Shown here in pieces: positions 7,515 to 13,534 of a stretch of 64,000 nucleotides of DNA. Location: the IMG/VR virus record IMGVR_UViG_3300042291_001013; one strand, written 5' to 3'. Source of the stretch: a virus (lineage: Duplodnaviria > Caudoviricetes). The notes beneath the pieces are model-generated. The model was not told the DNA's origin. It searched no databases and saw only the letters and a list, made by a program, of their open reading frames with translations. The position numbers and the translations under genes were made by a program. Every line of letters begins with the position of its first letter. Position 1 is the stretch's first letter.

Positions 7515-7606
7515 TGGCGGAAGACGGAGGAGTCGAACCCCATCCCTGTTAAGAGAACCTGGTTTTCAAGGCCAGTCGCGGGACCAACCCCACTGCATCA
7601 TCTTCC
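7515..7606 (-). tRNA. tRNA-Ser(TGA), atypical D-arm
   Basis: Loop CT-TGA-AA, long variable arm, G73, CCA. Confidence 0.88.
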
Positions 7607-8704: not shown

Positions 8705-8779
8705 TGGTAGCCATGGACAATTTCGAAATGTCGACCTAACGCTTATCAAGCGTTTGCTCTTCCTCTGAGCTACACGGCT
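8705..8779 (-). tRNA. tRNA-Ile(GAT)
   Basis: Loop TT-GAT-AA, CCA. Confidence 0.94.
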
Positions 8780-8788
8780 AAATATTGA

Positions 8789-8962
8789 ATGCACATTGAC
8801 GTCTATCTACAAAAACAGTTGTACTGCACCATTGAACTAAGTCAGCCCGGTTACAATGTGCCTGCTATCTTGGATCAAATCCAAAGTGATCGCGAAGCTG
8901 GCAACTTGACCTGGGTACAGTGGGATCAGCCGCTTGACTTTGAAGTCAAATACTTTGAATAA
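8789..8962 (+). CDS. Small protein antisense to the tRNA array (57 aa, MHIDVYLQKQLYCTIEL...FEVKYFE)
   Basis: TAAATA at 8779-8784 then ATG 8789; ORF exactly fills the Ile-Gln spacer. Confidence 0.6.
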   Translation: MHIDVYLQKQLYCTIELSQPGYNVPAILDQIQSDREAGNLTWVQWDQPLDFEVKYFE

Positions 8963-10156: not shown

Positions 10157-10188
10157 AAAAACCCTGGAGTGTTTAGTTCCAGGGTCTT
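10157..10188 (-). terminator. Intrinsic terminator of attenuator 1
   Basis: AAG-ACCCTGGA-actaaacac-TCCAGGGT-TTTT. Confidence 0.85.
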
Positions 10189-10208
10189 GTTGAATTTGTC
10201 AGTTACTT

Positions 10209-10343
10209 TTATGCGTAACCTGCACCTTCAATAGACCCCGACATCCCTAGAATACTATTCACGCGACCAGAGGCGTGTGACCAGGTAAATGTTGCCTGGA
10301 GCATCGCGGGTTTTGTCGACAGTGAACGGAATGTTGTTTTCAT
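10209..10343 (-). CDS. Putative leader peptide 1 (44 aa, MKTTFRSLSTKPAMLQATFTWSHASGRVNSILGMSGSIEGAGYA)
   Basis: Starts 10 nt after a -10 box; carries CGGGGTCTATTGAA complementary to the terminator 5' arm; stop 20 nt before the terminator. Confidence 0.65.
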   Translation of the reverse strand: MKTTFRSLSTKPAMLQATFTWSHASGRVNSILGMSGSIEGAGYA

Positions 10344-10353
10344 CTTAAGTCCT

Positions 10354-10382
10354 ATTGTAGTTTATTTATGATTGTTTGTCAA
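10354..10382 (-). promoter_or_regulatory. sigma70 promoter of leader 1 (TAAATA within spacer)
   Basis: TTGACA-17-TACAAT; TAAATA at 10363-10368. Confidence 0.8.
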
Positions 10383-10398
10383 TCACAAATGGTAAAAT

Positions 10399-10473
10399 TG
10401 GTTGCGGGTGAAGGATTCGAACCTCCGTCTTCTAGGTTATGAGCCTAGTAGTCTACCACTGACGTAACCCGCG
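10399..10473 (-). tRNA. tRNA-fMet(CAT), initiator
   Basis: C1:A72 mismatch, loop CT-CAT-AA; only two of the three G-C pairs in the anticodon stem. Confidence 0.9.
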
Positions 10474-10491
10474 TTAACTTTTATTTATATC

Positions 10492-10567
10492 TGGAGTAGG
10501 TGACAGGACTCGAACCTGCATTTTACGGATTTGCAATCCGGCGCCTAACCATTCGGCACACACCTAC
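10492..10567 (-). tRNA. tRNA-Cys(GCA)
   Basis: Loop TT-GCA-AA, U73, CCA. Confidence 0.95.
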
Positions 10568-10577
10568 ACTAATTGAA

Positions 10578-10790
10578 TTTGCAAGTAGTTGCTCCATCGT
10601 TATAGCAACCATTCACCCGTGTAATAAACTCGAGCGGGACTCGGTACGTCACTTGGGATACTAGTCCAGTTTGTCTCCGTTACAGACACCACCCTTGCGA
10701 GTGGTTGGGAGTTGAACCCATCACCTTCTACTGTTTTGGTCCTTCGAAGAAACCTAGACAGCATGACATTCTCTTGCTGACACTTACAAA
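10578..10790 (-). ncRNA. Candidate structured ncRNA C (about 213 nt, contains T-loop)
   Basis: Closing stem TTTGTAAGT/ACTTGCAAA; GGG-TTCAACT-CCC T-arm; ACCACTC-GCAA-GGGTGGT GNRA hairpin. Confidence 0.55.
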
Positions 10791-10793
10791 ACT

Positions 10794-10868
10794 TGGCGAT
10801 GCATGGGAGAATCGAACTCCCGTCTCCGGATAGACAATCCGGGATAATGACCATTATATGAATGCACC
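10794..10868 (-). tRNA. tRNA-Asp(GTC) copy 1 (U37)
   Basis: Loop TT-GTC-TA, G73, CCA. Confidence 0.92.
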
Positions 10869-10875
10869 TTAAACT

Positions 10876-10950
10876 TGGCGGTCCCAGGGGGTAACGATCC
10901 CCCTCTTCAGCAGTGACAGTGCTGTGTGCGTCCATGAACACCTTGAGACC
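10876..10950 (-). tRNA. tRNA-Asp(GTC) copy 2, atypical T-loop
   Basis: Loop CT-GTC-AC; T-loop ATCGTTA; G73, CCA. Confidence 0.85.
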
Positions 10951-10956
10951 AATTTT

Positions 10957-11101
10957 TATAGTTAAGCACCGAGAATGCCAATTTAGGAGTCCGGTGCTTC
11001 TGTTCCAAAGCCGATGCAGTTATATCAGGATCAGTCGCCGGCCGCTGTGACCCGAATAGTGTAAGCGTCCTTACACGATACCTTATCGGTGCTTAACTAT
11101 A
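10957..11101 (-). ncRNA. Candidate stem-closed ncRNA D (145 nt)
   Basis: Perfect 16-bp terminal inverted repeat TATAGTTAAGCACCGA/TCGGTGCTTAACTATA; internal hairpins GTGTAAG/CTTACAC and GGGTCA/TGATCC. Confidence 0.6.
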
Positions 11102-11103
11102 AA

Positions 11104-11310
11104 AACAAAAATGCTCTGCATCCCCCGGCGGTAATTGTAGTACATCAAGATACGACGCTATCGTACCCATCACACGTACCTTCCACCCGCTTCCCGACAG
11201 GGACCGTTATCGCATTGCTAGCGGCCTTTGGGTTCAAAGACTACCACCCGTAGCTGTCACGCTACTTCTCATCGTGTGGGTCACACTATCCGGAGACACC
11301 CGGAACGTTC
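11104..11310 (-). ncRNA. Candidate structured ncRNA E (about 205 nt, GC-rich)
   Basis: Starts directly after Tyr CCA; closing GTGTCTCC/GGGGATGC; hairpins GTAGC/GCTAC, CTTTG/CAAAG, TACGA/TCGTA; no credible ORF. Confidence 0.55.
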
Positions 11311-11311
11311 T

Positions 11312-11397
11312 TGGTGGAGATGGATGGATTTGAACCACCGCGCTTTTTACAGAACAGATTTACAGTCTGCCGCCTTCAACCACTCGGCCACATCTCC
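11312..11397 (-). tRNA. tRNA-Tyr(GTA)
   Basis: Loop CT-GTA-AA, long variable arm, CCA. Confidence 0.96.
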
Positions 11398-11405
11398 AAA
11401 AAAGG

Positions 11406-11468
11406 GAGAGCTACGGTTGCAGGACCTAGTGCCTCTTGCGAGGGAAGTATCCAGGCGATGTAGCTCTC
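11406..11468 (-). ncRNA. Candidate hairpin RNA F (Glu-Tyr spacer)
   Basis: GAGAGCTAC/GTAGCTCTC closing stem with internal CCTC-GCAA-GAGG GNRA hairpin. Confidence 0.45.
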
Positions 11469-11472
11469 AAAC

Positions 11473-11547
11473 TGGTAGAGCGTAGGAGAGTCGAACTCCT
11501 CTTATGCGGATGAAAACCGCATGTCCTAACCGATAGACGAACGCTCC
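11473..11547 (-). tRNA. tRNA-Glu(TTC)
   Basis: Loop TT-TTC-AT, CCA. Confidence 0.94.
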
Positions 11548-11557
11548 ATAGTTCACT

Positions 11558-11782
11558 ATATGAAAACACATTAGGATGTTTGATAGAAGTAACAGTTTTG
11601 AACCTGCCCTACTGTGTCGTCCACAGATTTGTCTATCAACCACATTACGGGCCAACTAGATCCGGCGCGCTTCGCTCTTTCGAGTCTGCTTTCGTGTAGT
11701 CCAAGTAGAGCCTAGCCGTCACTAGGATTTAGTTCTCTACTTGGGTACCTACCGGAGTTGGTAACCCAATGCGTTTACATAT
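11558..11782 (-). ncRNA. Candidate structured ncRNA G (225 nt, two domains, T-loop)
   Basis: About 17-bp closing stem ATGTAAACGCATTGGG/CCTAATGTGTTTTCAT; CCAAGTAGAG/CTCTACTTGG; CTC-GAAA-GAG; TTGATAGA/TCTATCAA; CAG-GTTCAAAA-CTG. Confidence 0.62.
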
Positions 11783-11881
11783 AGTGCCCAGAACTGAATC
11801 TGGGTACACTATACAAAATTAAATTTTTAACGAACTCCAAAGTAGCTTCGATCAACTGTCTTTGTTTTCTAACTTGTATCT

Positions 11882-11910
11882 AGTATAACATCTTGTGCTA
11901 TTCTGGTCAA
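11882..11910 (-). promoter_or_regulatory. sigma70 promoter heading the tRNA array
   Basis: TTGACC-17-TATACT. Confidence 0.8.
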
Positions 11911-11915
11911 CTTGT

Positions 11916-11953
11916 TTTGTAAAAGCCCCGCCTTGTTGCAGGGTCTTTACAAA
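11916..11953 (-). terminator. Third AAAGACCCTG-type hairpin/terminator
   Basis: TTTGTAAAGACCCTGC-aacaag-GCGGGGCTTTTACAAA. Confidence 0.65.
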
Positions 11954-11983
11954 CTTTGCTGTGTTACTTCCTAACTAGTCTCT

Positions 11984-12012
11984 AGTATAACATGATTCCA
12001 ATTCTTTGCCTA
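11984..12012 (-). promoter_or_regulatory. sigma70-like promoter (duplicate of the 11882 module)
   Basis: TAGGCA-17-TATACT followed by AGAnACnAGTTAG, as at 11882. Confidence 0.55.
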
Positions 12013-12022
12013 ACACATAAAG

Positions 12023-12049
12023 AAAAACCCTGCTCGGTGCAGGGTCTTT
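12023..12049 (-). terminator. Intrinsic terminator of attenuator 2
   Basis: AAAG-ACCCTGC-accga-GCAGGGT-TTTTCTTT. Confidence 0.85.
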
Positions 12050-12069
12050 GTAGATGTAGTACGAAATAC

Positions 12070-12156
12070 TTACACACAAAGACCCCGAGATGGATCATAC
12101 TCACGCTCGCATGTGAATGCCATTGAATTGAGGATGATTGCGAAAGTTTGTTTCAT
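12070..12156 (-). CDS. Putative leader peptide 2 (28 aa, MKQTFAIILNSMAFTCEREYDPSRGLCV), leaderless
   Basis: ATG 6 nt after TATAAT; CGGGGTCTTTGT can form 12 bp with the terminator 5' arm; stop 21 nt before the terminator. Confidence 0.68.
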   Translation of the reverse strand: MKQTFAIILNSMAFTCEREYDPSRGLCV

Positions 12157-12162
12157 AAGTGT

Positions 12163-12191
12163 ATTATATATGACAGCAGACAAAAAGTCTA
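12163..12191 (-). promoter_or_regulatory. sigma70 promoter of leader 2
   Basis: TAGACT-17-TATAAT-6 nt-ATG. Confidence 0.75.
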
Positions 12192-12204
12192 CTGTTTTGG
12201 TAAA

Positions 12205-12540
12205 ATTGGATAGGTTTATTCTGTTACGAGGAAAACCTATCAAAACCCTAGGCAGTGTTTAGGCTGCCAATGCGAACTGTTCGTCGTTTGCGTTTACGTT
12301 TTTTGCTTCTACGACCGGGAAACCCCAACCCTACGGCTTTCACATTGCCGAGCTGTCCACTCTGTTACTCTTTGCCCTGTCGAAACCATGGCAGGCCCAT
12401 TATAAAACATACTCAAACGGGTCTTTTCGCCTATCCCCGTGCCGTGGCTTGCAAGGATAGGGCTGAATATGCTTTATGGTGGACCTGGCGGGAGTCGAAC
12501 CCGCGTCCAGAACACTTTTCTCTTTGCTTCATACAGCAAT
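12205..12540 (-). ncRNA. ssrA: Circularly permuted (two-piece) tmRNA, tag ANDEQFALAA
   Basis: Acceptor piece ...GGACGCGGGTTCGACTCCCGCCAGGTCCACCA (CCA 12479-12477) precedes a 78-nt intervening segment and the coding piece GGGCCTG... (G1=12398, G3:U70); tag ORF 12291-12259. Confidence 0.93.
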
Positions 12541-12553
12541 AACCTATATTATA

Positions 12554-13498
12554 TTAGGCTTTCTGAATTTTGTCAACCAAACCGGCACTGAATGTGTTGG
12601 CAAATTGATCATATACTTTGGCAGTTACCTTGCGAAAAGTTTGCTCATCAGCATCGCTAAATTTAATAACACGAATGCCATCTTGCTCACAACGTGCCTT
12701 GGTAGGCTCAACTTCGGCCACAGCCACAGCACGCTCAAAACGTCCAGCTTCTAATGCCGCATCTTTCATGACCTGTTGCAGGTCTGCAGACAAGCCAGCC
12801 AAGAAGTTCTTGTTCACAATGATGTTAGTCAACAACAAGCGATGGTTGGGTTCCAAGATAGATTCAGCAACTTCGTTTTGTTGGCAAGCATAGATACGTG
12901 GCCATGAGCTTTCGCCGCCATCAATAGCACCATCTCGGATGCCTTCGGCCACACGTTCAACGTCCATCACAACTGGATCAGCGCCCAGGGCAGTCCATGT
13001 AGCGGCTGCAACTGGTGAATTTGACACACGCACTTTAACGCCGGCCATTTCACTTAGACTTGCAACGTCACGATTCATGGGCATGTTCATAAAGCCACCT
13101 GAGTAGGTAAATGCCATGCCTTTGATGTTGCTGTTCTTGGCGTAACCATCCAGCAAACTCTCGCCAATTTCACTTTCAAACACACGTGCCGCGTGATCGT
13201 GATCACGGAACAAGAAAGGCAAATCAAGTGCGTCAAGATCATTGTTGTACTTGCTGAGTACATAAGTGTACATCTGGCTCATTTCAATAGCGCCAGTGTC
13301 CATAACATCCAACAGGTTATGTTTGGTGATTGGTTCACCATGATTGTACTTGCTGGTATACTCGCTTAGAGTCAGCACTTCAATCTCAAACTGTCCTGGT
13401 GCACGGGCTTCTACTACTTCAGTAAATTTTTCAGCGGCACGAATAAAAATGTCAATAGGTTCATGGGCTAATACCCATTTGATGTGGATAGGTTTCAT
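12554..13498 (-). CDS. TRAP-transporter DctP-like solute-binding protein (no signal peptide)
   Basis: ALDLPFLFRD, EMAGVKVRV, LGADPVVM, GAIDGGE motifs. Confidence 0.88.
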   Translation of the reverse strand: MKPIHIKWVLAHEPIDIFIRAAEKFTEVVEARAPGQFEIEVLTLSEYTSKYNHGEPITKHNLLDVMDTGAIEMSQMYTYVLSKYNNDLDALDLPFLFRDHDHAARVFESEIGESLLDGYAKNSNIKGMAFTYSGGFMNMPMNRDVASLSEMAGVKVRVSNSPVAAATWTALGADPVVMDVERVAEGIRDGAIDGGESSWPRIYACQQNEVAESILEPNHRLLLTNIIVNKNFLAGLSADLQQVMKDAALEAGRFERAVAVAEVEPTKARCEQDGIRVIKFSDADEQTFRKVTAKVYDQFANTFSAGLVDKIQKA

Positions 13499-13534
13499 AA
13501 TATTTTTTCCTTGAGTAATAGCTTGCATGTGTAT

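Follow-up and report, generated by a model that had tools for sequence, protein, structure and literature searches.

In a 64,000-nt stretch of virus DNA (Duplodnaviria; Caudoviricetes; IMG/VR virus record IMGVR_UViG_3300042291_001013), hereafter called the window, we have studied a short transcription unit at positions 12,191 to 12,023 of the minus strand, in front of a block of tRNA genes. The unit consists of a promoter, an open reading frame (ORF) of 28 codons that is predicted to be leaderless, and an intrinsic terminator, the 5′ arm of which can pair instead with the last codons of the ORF. It belongs to a family of units, F2, whose members share a conserved block of leader codons (Glu and Asp, with or without Tyr; Leu and Ile-AUA in relatives), and this block mirrors the tRNA genes that adjoin it downstream. 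In our reading, to which we give a probability of roughly 60%, the unit would act as a ribosome-mediated leader-peptide transcription attenuator, which would sense decoding by the phage's own tRNAs and control part of the transcription into the first tRNA block. This reading is supported by the design of the unit and by comparative evidence, function being judged here from the comparison of sequences.

The original prediction, made from the letters of the window alone, had proposed attenuation at two places. The unit studied here had been taken for an independent copy of the design of a sister unit, "attenuator 1", and this is supported: the sister unit heads the second tRNA block and belongs to a second family, F1. 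For the unit studied here, comparative and folding evidence bears out a short ORF, an overlapping antiterminator and a terminator before tRNA genes. The accompanying idea that the leaders sense nearly every amino acid, or are designed to cover all 20 between them, is not supported: the conserved codons are few and are matched to the tRNAs downstream.

The unit and its leader codons

The anatomy of the unit can be read directly in the window; all of its features lie on the minus strand. The −35 hexamer TAGACT (12186–12191; TTGACT in 41 of 60 relatives) stands 17 nt from the −10 hexamer TATAAT (12163–12168), the two matching the consensus at 10 of 12 positions, and the spacer ACACTT (12162–12157) leads to the ATG (12156–12154). 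The distance from −10 box to ATG is thus 6 nt (5–7 nt in 60 out of 60 distinct F2 promoters), and the predicted transcription start is the A of the ATG or an adjoining nucleotide. The leader ORF, 28 codons and a TAA at 12072–12070 (MKQTFAIILNSMAFTCEREYDPSRGLCV; 12070–12156), is predicted to be leaderless and is intact in all relatives. It includes the candidate sensing codons TGC GAG CGT GAG TAT GAT (C-E-R-E-Y-D; 12094–12111), situated 7–24 nt upstream of segment 1 (CGGGGTCTTTGT; 12076–12087), the 5′ arm of the antiterminator, which lies within the last five codons. An apical hairpin with the stop codon in its 5′ strand follows (12052–12075; the pairing is kept in the variants of the relatives, as judged by eye), and then comes segment 2 (ACAAAGACCCTG; 12040–12051), complementary to segment 1 over 12 bp including one G·U. 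The partner of segment 2 would be either segment 1, in the antiterminator, or segment 3, in the terminator. The latter has an 11-bp stem (AAAGACCCTGC / GCAGGGTTTTT) with the loop ACCGA, followed by CTTT (12019–12049; hairpin 12049–12023). Promoter, 6-nt spacer, 28-codon ORF and terminator, as well as the helix between 12087–12076 and 12051–12040, had all been anticipated by the original prediction, and we found each of them in its place.

Downstream of the unit, the first tRNA block (10399–11547, minus strand) holds genes for tRNA-Glu(ttc), Tyr(gta), Asp(gtc), Asp(gtc), Cys(gca) and Met(cat), as identified with ARAGORN, and the candidate sensing codons correspond to the tRNA-Cys, Glu, Tyr and Asp genes of this block. 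We have run ARAGORN on all loci and compared the leader codons with the tRNA genes downstream; the co-variation between them is a direct observation. Glu and Asp codons occur in all F2 leaders, while tRNA-Glu(ttc) is present in all first blocks and tRNA-Asp(gtc) in all but a few. Tyr in the leader motif and tRNA-Tyr(gta) in the block are both present in 23 cases and both absent in 13; Tyr occurs in the leader only in two cases, and in no case is there a tRNA-Tyr gene only (for this count, three block assignments were corrected where the pattern had missed an F1 unit ending the block). The window itself combines the motif EREYD with a tRNA-Tyr gene in the block, and its nearest relatives, the loci L004 and L060, combine EREDD with a block that includes Glu and Asp without Tyr. 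Furthermore, F2 leaders with three to five Leu codons before segment 1 head blocks with tRNA-Leu(taa) and/or tRNA-Leu(tag), and a conserved AUA codon accompanies tRNA-Ile(tat); in the window, where this codon is AUG, the block includes a tRNA with the anticodon CAT. Leaving Glu and Asp aside, the leaders include 72 codons that are cognate to tRNAs of their own block, against 45.4 ± 4.9 when the blocks are permuted among the 23 clusters; none of 5000 permutations reached a number as high.

In addition, the F1 leaders change with their own tRNA genes. The window copy (10157–10382, minus strand) consists of the promoter TTGACA-17-TACAAT, a 44-codon ORF and a terminator with no promoter behind it, and the second tRNA block that it heads includes Ala, Trp, Asn, Ser, Thr, Arg, Lys and His, among others. 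Altogether we found 15 distinct F1 leaders of 35–46 codons, characterised by the motif WS(H/R)x(Y/F)GR..SIPG. With the motif taken more widely as WS(H/R/N)x(Y/F/S)G, the fifth residue is Y in six out of six genomes with tRNA-Tyr in block 2, and F or S in six out of six without it. The window and its close relative L060 differ in both leaders (F2, EREYD versus EREDD; F1, ASGR versus AYGR), and both differences fit the position of the tRNA-Tyr gene in each genome. Upstream of segment 1, moreover, the F1 leaders are depleted of the two residues that all F2 leaders specify: 3 Glu and 5 Asp occur in 507 residues where 28 and 33 are expected (p ~1e-9 each, which is optimistic as the sequences are related). 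No such depletion of Glu and Asp exists after segment 1 of F1. Permuting the blocks among the F1 leaders gave p = 0.17, the F1 blocks being much alike.

At one locus, L104, ARAGORN calls a tRNA-Tyr with the anticodon ATA some 900 nt past the F2 unit, the leader motif of which is without Tyr; the call may represent a pseudogene or a miscall. Another feature of the leaders concerns their beginning: the MK-x-TF start to which the original prediction drew attention is shared by the two leaders of the window but is not kept in the relatives, which start with MKQT, MMQN, MITQ or MNK.

Conservation and competing structures

The first relatives of the unit were found by means of a flanking protein and a tmRNA word. 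Two pattern scans of complementary ascertainment then delivered the family F2, which comprises 53 different peptides, and 60 different sequences of promoter plus ORF, in freshwater jumbo-phage contigs. One scan, for the −10 box and the ATG, combined the −10 box with ATGAAACA in viral and metagenome contigs and is unbiased for the 3′ half of the unit; it gave ~38 distinct units, all from lake metagenomes. The other, for the segments and the terminator (CTTTG..CAAAGACCC..GGGTTTT), brings in no bias for the promoter or the beginning of the ORF and added ~20 more distant members. A scan for the promoter with an in-frame Tyr-Glu, aimed at members with other segment sequences, found, among the matches listed, known members and random matches only.

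Conservation within F2 is observed directly in these sequences. All members have TTGACT or TAGACT, 17 nt, TATA(A/C)T, 5–7 nt and ATG; between the −10 box and the ATG stand spacers such as ACACTT, ACACT or AACACT, with neither a Shine-Dalgarno nor a purine-rich motif, and ACACTT, AACACT or TGATACT are the spacers, again without a purine-rich motif, when F2 and F1 promoters are taken together. The ORFs are intact, comprise 25–32 codons and end inside or just before the hairpin, the terminator beginning 17–33 nt past the stop codon, and the gaps in their alignment are of 3, 6, 9 or 12 nt, i.e., multiples of three. The leaders follow the pattern (A/T)-Y-E-(R/H/S)-(D/E), three or four residues, G-L-C, the core of which can be written (Y)E(R)(E/D)D, and they change mostly at the third position of the codon. 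The unit of most relatives lies behind a protein gene or is located 1.9 kb from the tmRNA gene, and the −35 hexamer is TTGACT. We have rejected the notion that the unit is a mere 3′ trailer of the tmRNA, because it is separate from the tmRNA in most relatives.

The conservation of segment 1 points to selection on the RNA. Its motif GGGGTCT is read in three frames in F2 (57, 4 and 1 sequences): it encodes G-L-C in 57 sequences, ends as RVFVGK* where one lineage has lost 1 nt, and as RSLLS* in the locus L098. In F1, the motif is likewise read in three frames, as G-S, R-V or S-G-S, and it covaries with the arm of the F1 terminator. Selection at the level of RNA, which the original prediction had surmised from two different frames in the window, is thus upheld in both families.

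The competing structures, too, are directly apparent on folding. The RNA of the window unit, from its predicted start to the terminator, has a minimum free energy (MFE) of −40.1 kcal/mol (z −3.24), and in the MFE structure the antiterminator is formed and the terminator is not; an upstream hairpin (AUCAUCCUCA/UGAGUAUGAU) is part of it. A strict scan of the window for terminators yielded four strong ones only, two of which are those of the two units, and as four are too few for a control set, dinucleotide shuffles served as control. The other sites of AGACCCTG and CGGGGTCT in the window (43240, 56210, 60335, 60373 and 56348) are located in coding sequence and are not terminators. Sequestration of the terminator 5′ arm amounts to −15.6 kcal/mol in the window unit, compared with −2.7 ± 2.1 for the shuffles (0 of 60 as low). 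Over all units the mean is −12.8 kcal/mol versus −2.6 for shuffles of the upstream sequence, and in 61 out of 77 units none of 60 shuffles is as low; this energy is comparable to that of the terminator stems, −13 to −18 kcal/mol. In the MFE structure of the nascent RNA (up to the terminator loop), the terminator 5′ arm is paired near the end of the ORF in every F2 and F1 unit; the sequestering stretch comprises the last 3–22 nt of the ORF in most F2 units and lies 0–38 nt before the stop codon in F1. About half of the units have a full-length MFE structure without the terminator.

The F2 terminator stem itself is 95% paired (56 sequences) and shows compensatory changes at three positions (UGC/GCA, UCC/GGA and CGC/GCG), with a covariation score that none of 500 shuffles reached. 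For the antiterminator, covariation is found in F1. Its promoters, TTGACA-17-TA(T/C)AAT, have the ATG 6–7 nt on in 13 of 15 units and 10 nt on in the window copy and one other, and its terminators read A(A/G)GACCC..GGGTTTTT. The antiterminator pairs GGGTCC with AGGACCC and GGGTCT with AAGACCC, the covarying position being C-G in nine cases, U-A in three or four, U·G in one and C·A in one. Both pairing states occur in both F1 subfamilies, and segment 1 of F1 was never part of any search pattern. No promoter stands behind any of the 15 F1 terminators, the leaders are poor in Glu and Asp upstream of segment 1 and the antiterminator covaries; F1 is, on its sequence features, the cleaner case of the two families.

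Proposed mechanism and alternatives

A leader ORF, a terminator, an alternative structure and codons matching the tRNA genes behind are all present in the window unit, which places it, as far as such features tell, among ribosome-mediated attenuators. We propose that a sigma-70-type promoter starts the RNA at the AUG or 1–2 nt before it, producing a leaderless mRNA. Segment 1, in the last five codons, would form together with the stop codon a long hairpin with segment 2, which is at the same time the 5′ arm of the terminator. When translation is prompt, a ribosome arriving at the stop codon would cover segment 1, so that segments 2 and 3 could pair and transcription would terminate at the U-tract. 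When the ribosome lags, the antiterminator would form first, the key delay being expected at the conserved Glu, Tyr and Asp (and Cys) codons 7–24 nt before segment 1, and RNA polymerase would read through into a structured RNA and the Glu-Tyr-Asp-Asp-Cys-Met tRNA genes. This read-through would add to the output of the conserved promoter behind the terminator. The net effect would be a negative feedback on the transcription of tRNA genes by the speed at which their codons are decoded.

The geometry of the unit agrees with such a sequence of events. A ribosome protects ~12–15 nt on either side of its A site, and on this assumption a ribosome at the stop codon covers −15 to +12, i.e., all of segment 1 (−15 to −4), while the terminator arm, which begins at +23, stays free. 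If the ribosome is held up at the Glu or Tyr codons (−36 to −25), segment 1 stays accessible, so that segment 2 would be captured before segment 3 is made.

A number of points weigh against this interpretation. One is the promoter directly behind the terminator (in the window, TAGGCA-17-TATACT with a TG extension, 11984–12012, minus strand), which occurs in 57 of 59 F2 units, the remaining two having TTGACG..TACAAT. With a promoter behind nearly all F2 terminators, the F2 device is at best additive to constitutive transcription, a caveat that the original prediction had voiced for the window and that now extends to the family. Since F1 terminators are not followed by a promoter, the F2 unit of the window would add a regulated to a constitutive component, and attenuator 1 would be the true gate. 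Furthermore, it is from sequence that we infer where transcription starts, that the ORF is translated and that termination depends on the ribosome. Metatranscriptome contigs from two lake studies, which count in favour of our reading, span the terminator of a close relative belonging to the most abundant F2 variant, type A (locus L059, 8260–8476 and 8277–8452); in one run, coverage begins inside the ORF, with none upstream of it, and the RNA contig nearest to the 5′ end stops 27 nt inside the ORF, but these are contigs rather than reads, at 2–5× depth, and DNA carry-over is possible.

Other reservations concern the codons. The two loci with Tyr in the leader only (L092 and L098) have kept it where no tRNA-Tyr gene is found downstream; a tree of the units provides two to three independent Tyr contrasts, all concordant, yet not numerous enough for a sign test. 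In the N-terminal half of the F2 leader, the codons (K, Q, T, A, I, N, S) have no counterpart among the tRNAs of the first block, nor do the His and Trp codons in leaders of type A. Structure furnishes the remaining objections. The lower stem of the F2 antiterminator is 83.9% paired, a value that shuffles equal, and its 9-bp core is invariant on both sides, thus providing no support by covariation; its conservation could in part reflect the G-L-C peptide and the terminator itself. In the type A variant, a G·A mismatch interrupts the antiterminator midway, and the terminator is the structure mostly formed on folding. RNAalifold, applied to whole units of 42 relatives, found the terminator only and no conserved helix upstream of it; as it revealed no conserved hairpin of the pause or anti-antiterminator kind, read-through is the expected default for a transcript that is not translated.

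A small gene that stands alone is an alternative that we consider unlikely. A peptide of 25–32 amino acids and/or a small RNA of ~130 nt would then act in trans, the terminator would be an ordinary one, the upstream pairing would only stabilise the RNA or tune its 3′ end, and the tRNA genes would use the promoter that follows. Such a gene would explain why the unit has a strong promoter and terminator of its own with another promoter directly behind, and why the peptide pattern (a hydrophobic N-terminal half, the acidic YERD and the GLC end) changes mostly at third codon positions. Moreover, an attenuator RNA and its peptide that act in trans are known from Sinorhizobium, namely, rnTrpL and peTrpL (PMC6614838 and PMC7968998). 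The conserved residues, however, are the amino acids of the tRNAs behind and shift with the tRNA content, the F1 leaders shifting reciprocally; two lineages have lost the GLC end through a frameshift while keeping the RNA motif; and the 5′ arm of the terminator is sequestered as strongly as the terminator folds, which a plain terminator does not need. A gene of this kind would also be compatible with attenuation, rather than exclude it. What we have rejected is a functional YERD...GLC micro-protein as the sole explanation, since the pattern varies with the tRNA genes and can do without its GLC end.

The diversity of codons in the window leader has its own bearing on how the signal would be read. 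The original prediction counted 18 different amino acids in 28 codons, with only Trp and His lacking. The count is correct but mildly unusual at most, as random 28-mers of phage composition come as high with P = 0.03, and the relatives mostly have 15–16 different amino acids, the same as random peptides. The number would be the very point if the unit were a general sensor of translation capacity, in which any slow codon or slow leaderless initiation leads to read-through and no codon is special; in a three-segment design, any stall before segment 1 or a failure to initiate would indeed favour the antiterminator. We hold such a general sensor to be improbable, given that conservation is centred on the Glu, Asp and Tyr codons near segment 1, where it tracks the local tRNA genes, and that Glu and Asp are kept out of the F1 leaders before segment 1, for which a generic sensor has no need. 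A constitutive terminator or insulator, which would end the tmRNA or another upstream transcript and shield the tRNA array, with an untranslated ORF and an incidental promoter-like sequence, is very improbable: in the window, no terminator exists between the tmRNA gene and the hairpin of the unit, the −35 hexamer falls within the last hairpin of the tmRNA gene, and in one relative (X26 record 16) an RNA contig spans from upstream of the promoter into the ORF, but most relatives have their unit 1.9 kb from the tmRNA gene, or with no tmRNA nearby, after a protein gene and with the consensus −35 TTGACT, more than 50 distinct sequences all keep the ATG 5–7 nt past the −10 box and an uninterrupted ORF whose indels are multiples of three, and the co-variation of codons with tRNA genes would be left unexplained.

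Beyond the single attenuator, the two families together suggest a homeostat of tRNA supply, to which we give about even odds. Nested leaderless attenuators would head successive tRNA blocks, each written in the codons of its own tRNAs; slow decoding would raise transcription, and the leaders would be rewritten when a tRNA gene changes block.

Genomic setting and known systems

The window carries 26 tRNA genes and a permuted tmRNA gene of the beta type between 6.2 and 12.6 kb on the minus strand (ARAGORN and Rfam). The 100-kb IMG/VR record is estimated to be 29% complete, so its source is a jumbo phage. The unit has the tmRNA gene on one side and tRNA-Glu (11547), the first of the tRNA genes, on the other. 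BLAST of the region against deposited phage genomes returned fragments of tRNA and tmRNA only and no close relative, and Rfam gave no match within 12023–12170 at E ≤ 1. The permuted (two-piece) tmRNA gene (12171–12590, minus strand; RF01850, 112 bits; RF04321, 123 bits; also called by ARAGORN) specifies the tag ANDEQFALAA. The 26-mer at its acceptor end is common to many phyla and does not allow a host to be assigned. Its promoter is a perfect consensus, TTGACA-17-TATAAT (12548–12576, minus strand), inside the final codons of an upstream ORF of 324 amino acids (12554–13528). In the relative L004, a 38-codon ORF (MKPKLLYYLNGG...) occurs in the intervening segment of the permuted tmRNA gene (8740–8880); the intervening segment in the window is shorter and different. 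Between the tRNA-Pro and tRNA-Val genes of the window, a tRNA-Sec-like Rfam match (7519–7606, minus strand) scores 36.9 bits, below the gathering score of 47, and has no ARAGORN call.

Between the unit and the first tRNA gene, three further elements occur on the minus strand. The promoter behind the terminator opens a short unit (11920–12012) of ~60 nt without an ORF, which ends in a second hairpin (GTAAAGACCCTGC / GCGGGGCTTTTAC; 11920–11950) that reuses the AAAGACCC motif; it is present in 11 of 59 relatives and might represent either a small RNA or an attenuator copy that has degenerated. A third promoter, TTGACC-17-TATACT (11882–11910), follows. From 11548 to 11876, between this promoter and tRNA-Glu, the first product downstream is a highly structured RNA of ~330 nt (MFE −104 kcal/mol, z −5.06; 0 of 100 shuffles as low) without a match in Rfam. 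A counterpart occupies the same place in L004 and L059, and it may be an undescribed structured RNA that is co-transcribed with the tRNAs.

Discussion of phage tRNA arrays usually turns on codon usage or the evasion of host tRNA cleavage alone; to our knowledge, the control of their expression is essentially unknown. If the attenuator reading is true, phages measure decoding speed and adjust their own supply of tRNAs. Classical attenuation, known for the supply of amino acids, would then embrace that of tRNAs as well, and also leaderless mRNAs, probably in a proteobacterial setting, and leader codons would become a marker, readable in the sequence, of tRNAs that share one transcription unit. 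The F2 family is abundant in lake metagenomes, and the unit is short and self-contained; the principle behind it may be widespread. In the literature, we found no description of leader-peptide attenuators before phage tRNA genes, or before any tRNA genes, and none of a direct feedback of translation speed on tRNA genes of any kind.

The classical leader-peptide attenuators are those of the enterobacterial amino-acid operons: trpL, hisL, pheL, leuL, thrL and ilvL. Like these, the unit has a short leader ORF, codons related to the product, and an antiterminator and a terminator that are mutually exclusive, and as we propose it, the position of the ribosome decides, with arrival at the stop codon favouring termination (for the attenuators of amino-acid biosynthesis operons, see PMC1183508). 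It differs in that tRNA genes of a phage are controlled instead of enzymes, the proposed signal being the speed of decoding by particular tRNAs. It also differs in the predicted leaderless mRNA, in the several amino acids that would be sensed together and in the promoter after the terminator. Compared with trp, three segments are evident and a conserved 1:2 pause hairpin was not found, which makes for a simpler design. In the pyrBI and pyrE attenuators of E. coli, the leader ORF runs through the terminator, and a ribosome close behind the polymerase prevents termination. The closeness of the ribosome to RNA polymerase would matter in the unit as well, but its stop codon is 21 nt before the terminator arm and an arriving ribosome should promote termination.

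In Corynebacterium diphtheriae, the leader-peptide transcript of ilvB is documented to be leaderless (PMC5784534). There, as predicted for the unit, transcription starts at the start codon of the leader, and a short ORF precedes an attenuated operon; unlike the unit, it is found on an actinobacterial chromosome, before an operon of amino-acid biosynthesis, and the sequences are unrelated. For Sinorhizobium meliloti, PMC6614838 and PMC7968998 describe rnTrpL and peTrpL, a terminated attenuator RNA and a leader peptide with functions in trans. A conserved and abundant terminated attenuator RNA with its leader peptide, the latter predicted in F2, is common to both, and rnTrpL and peTrpL offer a precedent for dual function only, by analogy to which the RNA or peptide of F2 might have a second function in trans. 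What sets F2 and F1 apart among these systems is that, when a single tRNA gene moves to another block, both leaders are rewritten reciprocally.

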